Shown: positions 9,667 to 9,860 of the stretch, piece by piece
How positions within the stretch are numbered: position 1 is the stretch's first letter
How the letters are laid out: every line of letters begins with the position of its first letter
Source: Thermoproteota archaeon
GTDB lineage: Archaea > Korarchaeota > Korarchaeia > Korarchaeales > Korarchaeaceae
Direction: 5' to 3'
NCBI GenBank assembly: GCA_026986575.1
Contig: JALSOH010000006.1
Location: forward strand, 320,001-384,000
Length of the DNA: 64,000 nt
Program-made: the position numbers and the translations under genes
Notes under the pieces: generated by a model
Database searches by the model: none
Seen by the model: only the letters and a program-made list of their open reading frames with translations
Told to the model about the DNA's origin: nothing

Positions 9667-9725
9667 CGCTAACACCGGACAAACTATTTATATAACTTCC
9701 TCGATTTAAAGGGAGGAGGATCTGG

Positions 9726-9860
9726 GGGGCCGTGGCCCAGCCTGGCTCTCCCCCCATGATTGGGGGAACGCCCTGGAAAGGTAGGGCGGCGGGCTCCAGT
9801 CATTGGAGCACTGAGGGGGAGACCCGTAGGACGTGGGTTCAAGTCCCACCGGCCCCACCA
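9726..9860 (+). tRNA. trnW: tRNA-Trp(CCA) with two introns (about 9743-9778 in the D-loop; 9800-9821 at 37/38) and encoded CCA end
   Basis: Acceptor GGGGCCG/CGGCCCC+ACCA, D-stem GCCC/GGGC, anticodon stem GCGGG/CCCGT with CT-CCA-G, T-arm GTGGG-TTCAAGT-CCCAC; BHB-like motifs at both insertions; removing 36+22 nt leaves a 77-nt cloverleaf. Confidence 0.92.

Follow-up and report, generated by a model that had tools for sequence, protein, structure and literature searches.

The two introns of a korarchaeal tRNA-Trp gene probably form a split box C/D guide for Cm34

Intron-guided methylation of C34 (Cm34) in tRNA-Trp is a textbook case of a functional tRNA intron, and the locus described here raises the question of whether such a guide can be divided between two introns of one gene. 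The locus is a tRNA-Trp(CCA) gene at 9726-9860 (+) of a stretch of 64,000 nucleotides, hereafter the window, from an assembly belonging to the Korarchaeaceae (GCA_026986575.1, contig JALSOH010000006.1, positions 320,001 to 384,000 of the forward strand). The gene carries one intron in the D loop (intron 1) and another at position 37/38 (intron 2). A sequence-only reading of the window had proposed that a box C in intron 1 and a box D in intron 2 are brought together by a stem between the introns, and that a guide beside box D targets C34. Our evidence for a split guide is all computational. Each of the proposed elements was recovered base by base at its place, and what the proposal predicts at this level (conservation in 33/33 orthologues, covariation of the stem, homology of the guide and a layout found in one family only) was what we observed. 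We therefore read the two introns as probably constituting a split kink-turn half-mer guide for Cm34, which would work on the unspliced precursor.

The structure of the gene was assigned by hand and its introns were taken from a scan for bulge-helix-bulge motifs. It is the sole tRNA-Trp which we found in the 1.91-Mb genome: neither ARAGORN nor Rfam detected it (the Rfam matches were T-arm look-alikes only), and none of the 42 intron-less tRNAs reported by ARAGORN is a tRNA-Trp. A “tRNA-Trp” called by ARAGORN with a forced intron is actually tRNA-Gly(GCC), and such calls are spurious. The borders of intron 1 come from enumerating all splice-site pairs against bulge-helix-bulge geometry, which gave a central helix at 9737-9740/9773-9776, bulges CC/U and AA/A and an inner helix at 9744-9746/9770-9772; removal of this intron leaves an ordinary mature D loop, AGCC-AGGUA. 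For intron 2 the central helix is CUCC (9794-9797) with GGGG (9816-9819) and the bulges are AG/U and AG/A. Both introns have a 4-bp central helix and two 3-nt bulges, and across the orthologue alignment these helices were 100% (intron 1, with one compensatory pair) and 96% (intron 2) paired. It should also be noted that TTTATATA, at 9687-9694 and 32 nt 5' of tRNA position 1, resembles an archaeal TATA box by eye.

We compared the gene to orthologues in a collection which contains 40 genomes of the same class and 43 of the same phylum. This gave 33 tRNA-Trp genes from the family of this genome (f1), representing four genera: the genome itself and 19 others of its genus (g1), 5 from g2, 4 from g5 and 4 from g3. 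The resulting alignment (A1) has 28 distinct rows, and 14 haplotypes were used for a shuffle test. No tRNA-Trp was found by the patterns used in G023 (genus g4), G048, G018, two genomes of family f3, G030 and G031, some of the patterns matching nothing but coding-like sequence at control level, and these are gaps rather than absences. Both introns were present in 33/33 genes of the family. A metagenome scan with a 16-base exon word matched at least 119 stretches; among the matches listed, two were tRNA-Trp genes, one of them like that of the window (L069) and the other a one-intron relative (L146). In two members of genus g2 (L049 of G042 and L050 of G043) the tRNA-Trp diverges directly 3' of GGGTTCAAA or GGGTTCGAATCC, which suggests a third intron in the T arm or loop.

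The guide in intron 2 (9803-9809) forms six Watson-Crick pairs and the pair G9799-U9803 with the target strand of the anticodon arm (9793-9799), and G9806, the fifth base 5' of box D, stands opposite C9796, which is C34. By the N+5 rule the methylated base is the partner of the fifth base 5' of box D (PMC7994747; published work is cited here, by PMC number, from excerpts of its text). These features were all present as the sequence-only reading had described them, and the N+5 spacing for C34 was kept in 33/33 genes. The guide core GGAGC, the one-base spacer and the GA of box D were invariant or nearly so throughout, and their flanks varied. Box D itself was CTGA in 20 genes, ATGA in 8, TCGA in 3, TTGA in 1 and TAGA in 1, with GA in all 33, and the contiguous pairing of guide and target was 7 bp in 21 genes, 6 bp in 6, 5 bp in 2 and 8-10 bp in 4. 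Pairing with the first three bases of intron 2 was rejected as a reason for the conserved UGA of box D, as those bases vary freely and show no covariation. We found no second guide for position 39: by eye, neither intron contains a complement to the 36-43 region.

The box C-like element of intron 1 (AUGAUUG in the window) has the core ATGAT in 27 of the orthologues, GTGAT in 5 and ATGAC in 1 (RUGAU in 32 and RUGAC in 1), and its U-G-A are the sole three adjacent invariant columns inside intron 1. L7Ae binds only where a terminal stem juxtaposes boxes C and D and where two sheared G-A pairs and the uridine of box C are present (PMC7994747). The sequence requirements of a kink-turn (C-stem, closing C-G pair, 3-nt bulge and tandem G-A pairs) are present and conserved at this locus, the fold itself being predicted; the bulge, CAU in the window, occurs as TAT, GAT, CAT, TGT, AAT or AGT. 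The sequence-only reading had called this box C degenerate, a description which needs to be revised, since tRNA-Trp introns of many lineages normally have RUGAUUN as their C' box, a form also seen in this genome's own candidate small RNAs (sRNAs). Other partners for box C (GA at 9766-9767, GA at 9776-9777 and the D'-like UGGA at 9774-9777) were rejected, having by eye no stem which adjoins the G-A pairs.

The stem which would join the introns is formed by TCTCCCCC at 9747-9754 (the b strand) and GGGGGAGA at 9815-9822 (the n strand), which are fully complementary over 8 bp. Counted outward from the kink-turn, contiguous pairing of the two strands was 8 bp in 11 genes, 7 bp in 9, 6 bp in 4 and 5 bp in 9, and the inner five pairs never fail in alignment A1. 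Covariation had been put forward as a check on this stem and was found: four of the eight pairs change on both sides, namely C-G/G-C at -7, U-A/G-C at -6, C-G/U-G/U-A at -4 and C-G/U-A at -3. For the stem and the guide helix together, 89% of cells were paired vs 43-60% when the partner was slid by 1-3 columns. When n strands were shuffled among the 14 haplotypes, 0 of 20000 shuffles reached the observed contiguous pairing, although the relatedness of the haplotypes keeps this figure from being a clean probability. Most telling is genus g3, where intron 2 measures 34-47 nt and has the splicing strand (GGAG or AGAG) at its far 3' end, and the n strand, GGAGGA, lies after box D in the middle of the intron, apart from the splicing helix; the b strand of this genus, UCCUCC, matches it. 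It should be noted that RTGAT followed after 20-80 nt by TGA, with an adjoining stem of at least 8 bp, occurs 5 times in the 1.91-Mb genome vs 0-7 times in five Markov-1 simulated genomes, and that the chance of the bare pattern is about 1e-4 for a given 100-nt locus. Because the bare pattern is weak in a single sequence, the weight of the case rests on conservation in 33/33 genes of four genera.

If the two introns do form a split guide, the pyrimidine run at 9747-9754 would pair with the G run at 9815-9822 in the unspliced pre-tRNA-Trp, and this pairing would set the AUGAU of box C against the CUGA of box D. The resulting kink-turn would comprise the C-stem, a 3-nt bulge ending in U, the tandem G-A/A-G pairs and a U-U pair. 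L7Ae would assemble on it first and Nop5 and fibrillarin afterwards, and the guide, paired in cis with the anticodon loop so that C34 lies opposite its fifth base, would direct formation of Cm34. After methylation the precursor would refold into its two bulge-helix-bulge motifs and be spliced by the endonuclease. The guide fold occupies the splicing-helix strand of intron 2, and methylation would therefore precede the refolding needed for cutting. Cm34 has been found in the tRNA-Trp of one crenarchaeon, S. acidocaldarius, and of two euryarchaea, H. volcanii and T. kodakarensis; its supposed role is to prevent UGA from being misread (PMC7668247).

A pattern scan of 401 genomes showed that YUGGAGC-N-NUGA 3' of the Trp anticodon is widespread. 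We fetched 28 of the genes which carry this guide and box outside family f1, namely 6 of a canonical type and 22 of a short type (11 families). In each of the 28, the intron with the guide also contains a C or C' box, arranged with kink-turn geometry, compared with 0/33 in family f1. A D-loop intron was found in 0/31 tRNA-Trp genes from outside the family (one of these, L185, was judged by eye), and within the family a RUGA was found in the D-loop intron of 33/33. The canonical type begins at the 5' splice site with a b strand of 3-4 nt, followed by box C, a guide for position 39, D' and C'; next come the C34 guide, CUGA, an n strand (also 3-4 nt) and the splicing helix, and the 3' splice site closes the intron. 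One canonical gene (G139) has a 12-mer identical to 9803-9814 of the window. Intron 2 of family f1 looks like the 3' end of a canonical C/D intron without its 5' part, and box C and its stem strand look as though they were supplied by another intron.

The short type runs from the anticodon through a loop, the guide, D', the n strand, another loop, the b strand and one base to C'. The stem is at least 2 bp in 18/22 of these genes, the other 4/22 being K-loops, and the C' boxes are mostly RUGAUUN. The short-type genes are loci L183-L202, L209 and L210, with a loop of 3-20 nt and CUGA, AUGA or UUGA as D'. The sister family f2, which belongs to the same order (L046 and L047), and the metagenome contig L146 have a single intron of 51-61 nt and no D-loop intron, arranged as D' (CUGA, CCGA or UUGA), a loop or hairpin, GAUGAAGA and then the C34 guide C-GCUCUGGAGC. 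GUGA follows the C34 guide in L146, at N+5 for C34; in f2 there is no clear D box after the guide, only UGGA or CGGA overlapping the splicing helix. A tRNA-Trp from family f4 of the same phylum (G029:C9:222783-222870) has a 61-nt 37/38 intron with GCGAUGA, GGGAUGAUUAG and UCGA, and in this intron we found no clear anticodon complement placed 5' of a D box. These sequences suggest that archaeal tRNA-Trp introns may comprise at least three layouts of one guide and kink-turn module. No description of the short one-intron layout was found in the literature searched, supplements not covered.

Only the one-intron form of the tRNA-Trp guide is described in the excerpts of PMC4090602, PMC11408192, PMC2584109 and PMC7994747, one of which says that the Trp guide “is always intronic”. 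This form is represented by the box C/D guide of the Haloferax and Pyrococcus type (sR50 in PMC7994747), which directs Cm34 and Um39. The locus in the window resembles this type in the tRNA concerned, in the 37/38 guide intron, in YUGGAGC-N-CUGA with C34 at N+5, in an n strand which follows box D and is itself followed by the splicing helix and 3' splice site, and in guide and splicing folds which are mutually exclusive (PMC2584109). In sR50, however, a single intron holds box C, the guide for position 39, D' and C', and the terminal stem is 3-4 bp, whereas here the 5' part is missing, intron 2 is only 22 nt, box C and its stem strand stand in the D-loop intron, the stem is 5-8 bp and there is neither a C'/D' motif nor a position-39 guide. 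With the short one-intron form, which occurs in many small-genome archaeal families, the locus shares a short cis hairpin (loops of 3-20 nt), a one-base spacer, CUGA, AUGA or UUGA, and a single kink-turn beside the C34 guide with a C' box of the RUGAUUN type. The partner box of the short form follows D', in a local hairpin or K-loop of the same intron, whereas here the partner is about 50 nt upstream in the other intron and the kink-turn would close a loop containing exon 2.

Two further systems bear comparison. The permuted C/D box sRNA24 of Nanoarchaeum equitans attains the right box order only after circularisation (PMC3491384); as at our locus, the linear order of its boxes is non-standard and the topology of processing decides whether the motif can form. 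sRNA24 is a stand-alone RNA which circularisation makes functional, whereas the halves here lie in two introns and would be lost by processing. Pre-tRNAs with multiple introns in Thermoproteales and Korarchaeum likewise combine a canonical 37/38 intron with a non-canonical one in the D loop whose bulge-helix-bulge motif is regular (PMC4033280), but the extra intron here has a conserved box C-like motif, and in the excerpt of that work no function is assigned to extra introns. Our box C is in intron 1 and our box D in intron 2 with exon 2 between them, and the two boxes are not on one contiguous processed RNA. This division between two introns is a new feature relative to archaeal box C/D guide RNAs. 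We found no description of a C/D guide divided between two introns in the full-text literature searched, which leaves subscription journals mostly uncovered, as well as key older papers and supplements.

The protein machinery is encoded in the genome: the Nop5 gene neighbours that for fibrillarin on contig C4, and the L7Ae family is represented by two genes. The genome's own C/D sRNA candidates have unusually long GC-rich terminal stems of 5-8 bp which abut the boxes, and their internal boxes are degenerate, with AUGA or CGGA as D' and GUGAUUA, GUGAGAA or GUGAAGA as C'; the split motif shares this style. The genome yielded no stand-alone guide for C34 preceded by a C or C' box. A further intron-containing tRNA, at C4 complement 126481-126591, has the anticodon loop CUUAUAU and is tRNA-Ile(UAU)-like; this rare type has been reported from Korarchaeum and Nanoarchaeum (PMC8450103).

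Several observations weigh against a split guide. The guide duplex, at 5-10 bp, is short of the usual guide of 10-12 nt (PMC7994747), although the cis hairpins in the short one-intron forms of other archaea are equally short. Positions 6-7 of box C are UG, AU, AA or AG and so depart from the RUGAUGA consensus; such departures are frequent in the C' boxes of tRNA-Trp introns from other lineages and among the sRNA candidates of this genome. Only about 8/33 genes have a Watson-Crick pair at 4b-4n. There is a single kink-turn: as the sequence-only reading had noted, no convincing C'/D' boxes are to be seen, with no RUGA/CUGA pair by eye between 9763 and 9802 and no RUGA 3' of box D in intron 2 of any of the 33 genes, and single-site ribonucleoproteins (RNPs) are active yet unspecific in vitro (PMC1635284). 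Positions -6 to -8 of the stem are unpaired in G002, in genus g2 and in part of g5, and a change at b(-6) in G050 is compensated in the hairpin of intron 1, not in the n strand. That hairpin (9749-9754 with 9762-9767), to which the sequence-only reading had rightly pointed as a caveat, also pairs the b strand, in this case with a 3' strand of intron 1 itself, and it covaries too. All 33 genes derive from one event in one family, and their counts are not independent. Finally, the tRNA-Met(CAU) of the same genome (G000 contig C4, complement 294617-294728) has a 34-nt 37/38 intron which lacks C and D boxes; its 5' part, UGAGUC, pairs with GACUCA of the anticodon arm, and its 3' end, UGGG, forms the splicing helix, giving the same two alternative partners as in tRNA-Trp. 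Because this box-less hairpin exists, a hairpin between anticodon and intron proves nothing alone.

We also compared the competing folds by nearest-neighbour folding, in which neither G-A pairs nor L7Ae are modelled. For the window's pre-tRNA, the inter-intron stem with the guide hairpin had an energy of -69.6 kcal/mol at 37 C and -23.0 kcal/mol at 80 C, against -58.3 and -17.3 kcal/mol with both splicing motifs formed, and the unconstrained optimum at 80 C holds both the stem and the guide hairpin. Of the 28 distinct sequences, 25 had the guide hairpin in their minimum-energy fold at 37 C, and 23 had it there at 80 C. The inter-intron stem did less well and adds to the points against the split guide, being found in the minimum-energy fold of only 2/28 at 37 C and 16/28 at 80 C, and never in genera g2 or g3. 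In this model the stem is near balance with the hairpin of intron 1, and the G-A pairs and L7Ae would have to tip it. The sequence-only reading had held that the stem competes with both splicing motifs: this stands for intron 2, whose central splicing helix is overlapped and excluded, but not for intron 1, where only the apical hairpin is affected and the bulge-helix-bulge core is untouched. In the fold with the inter-intron stem, the 3' end of intron 1, CGCCCUG, pairs with UAGGGCG of exon 2, both strands lying within 9769-9788, and mimics a D arm. This mimic occupies the site which a C'/D' motif would take in a normal sRNA, and GCCCUGGAAAGG is highly conserved.

These exclusive folds allow a bolder extension of the split guide, which we hold to be possible but, on balance, doubtful. 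The bipartite kink-turn may be a conformational switch which builds “methylate first, splice second” into the RNA: with the b strand holding the 3' end of intron 2, the precursor would be a methylation substrate and unspliceable at 37/38, and release of the RNP would free both splicing motifs. The excised introns might moreover stay annealed as a two-piece guide RNP. More broadly, a C/D RNP would in that case be built in vivo from non-contiguous pieces of RNA, and a non-canonical tRNA intron would have been retained for a function.

The most serious alternative, which we nevertheless consider unlikely, is that we are looking at structural leftovers: the guide-like hairpin and the G run would be alternative helices of the pre-tRNA which assist the two bulge-helix-bulge motifs or simply accompany them, with CUGA a relic of an ancestral full C/D intron, the RUGAU loop having an unrelated function or none, and no involvement of L7Ae, Nop5 or fibrillarin. 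Intron 2 requires the G run for its splicing helix and intron 1 requires the b strand for its hairpin, both of which covary independently; to this can be added the box-less hairpin of tRNA-Met, the roughly five chance occurrences of the bare pattern per genome, the absence of the stem from most minimum-energy folds at 37 C and the guide-like sequence which sister family f2 retains without a clear D box after it. A relic, however, would not hold U-G-A and G-A invariant over four genera amid varying neighbours, and pairing with the freely varying first bases of intron 2 does not explain the UGA of box D. Moreover, the b strand stays complementary to the n strand although the hairpin alone would permit any sequence, the n strand of genus g3 matches the b strand even outside the splicing helix, and the same guide and D box are tied to a kink-turn in every other lineage sampled.

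It is less probable again that the split kink-turn forms and binds L7Ae as a splicing chaperone or timing switch and not as a guide, keeping the precursor in a shape closed to the endonuclease, Cm34 being absent or made otherwise. The exclusion of the central splicing helix of intron 2, by the inter-intron stem and by the guide hairpin alike, would suit such a role, as would one kink-turn with a short duplex, which is a poor basis for a classical C/D RNP (PMC1635284). What this explanation does not account for is the one-base spacer which places C34 at the fifth position, fixed in 33/33 genes and identical in canonical guides; in addition, Cm34 is the known product of homologous introns (PMC2584109, PMC7668247) and no other C34 guide was found in the genome. 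Least probable of all, if only slightly, is a trans guide made after splicing, in which the excised introns, annealed by a 7-bp b/n stem, would methylate C34 of other tRNA-Trp molecules, precursor or mature: the stem is nearly all intronic (9747-9753 with 9816-9822, less exon base 9822), in vitro the intron guide of H. volcanii works in trans, and tRNA-Trp introns persist as stable circles once excised (PMC2584109, PMC3326292). Against this, a duplex of only 6-7 bp would form with the anticodon loop, circularisation is the usual fate of archaeal introns and both stem and guide would be strained in a circle of 22 nt, and locally no fold is more stable than the cis hairpin. For S. solfataricus, a stable Trp intron of 65 nt which lacks consensus boxes has been reported (PMC3326292). 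The coordinates of the features are collected in Table 1.

Table 1. Features of the tRNA-Trp gene in the window, with the elements of the proposed split guide and the C/D sRNA candidates of the same genome.
Feature	Coordinates	Strand	Remarks
Exon 1	9726-9742	+	Hand reading and bulge-helix-bulge scan
Acceptor stem	9726-9732 with 9850-9856	+	Discriminator A9857; hand reading
Intron 1, D loop, 36 nt	9743-9778	+	Canonical helix-bulge-helix-bulge-helix motif
b strand UCUCCCCC, 5' strand of proposed C-stem	9747-9754	+	Pairs with 9815-9822
Predicted kink-turn three-base bulge CAU	9755-9757	+	Third base U 33/33, second base purine 33/33, first base variable
Box C-like AUGAUUG	9756-9762	+	Sheared pairs G9758-A9814 and A9759-G9813 predicted
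3' strand of intron 1's own hairpin	9762-9767	+	Competes with 9815-9822 for the b strand
Exon 2	9779-9799	+	Hand reading and bulge-helix-bulge scan
Anticodon stem	9789-9793 with 9823-9827	+	Hand reading
Target strand GCUCCAG, G31 to G37	9793-9799	+	Invariant in alignment; C34 is 9796
Anticodon	C9796-C9797-A9798	+	C9796 is C34
Intron 2, position 37/38, 22 nt	9800-9821	+	Bulge-helix-bulge motif
Guide UUGGAGC	9803-9809	+	GGAGC invariant in 33/33 orthologues
One-base spacer A9810 and box D CUGA (9811-9814)	9810-9814	+	Spacer A in 31 and T in 2 of 33
n strand GGGGGAGA, 3' strand of proposed C-stem	9815-9822	+	Overlaps splicing strand 9816-9819; ends on exon base A38 (9822)
Exon 3	9822-9860	+	CCA encoded at 9858-9860
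T arm	9833-9849	+	Hand reading
C/D sRNA candidates	G000 contig C4 near 133079, 134386, 545528	+	Canonical, long terminal stems
C/D sRNA candidates	C4 offsets 87014, 582988; C6 394557	reverse complement	Offsets from contig 3' end

In 2008 it was still regarded as open whether the intron guide of tRNA-Trp works in cis or in trans (PMC2584109). A split guide of the kind which we propose can form covalently only in the fully unspliced precursor, and with its boxes in two introns both the cis question and the order of methylation and splicing therefore become directly testable. If our reading is right, this would be the first function assigned to a non-canonical (D-loop) tRNA intron. It would also mean that the partners of a kink-turn can move within a transcript during evolution.

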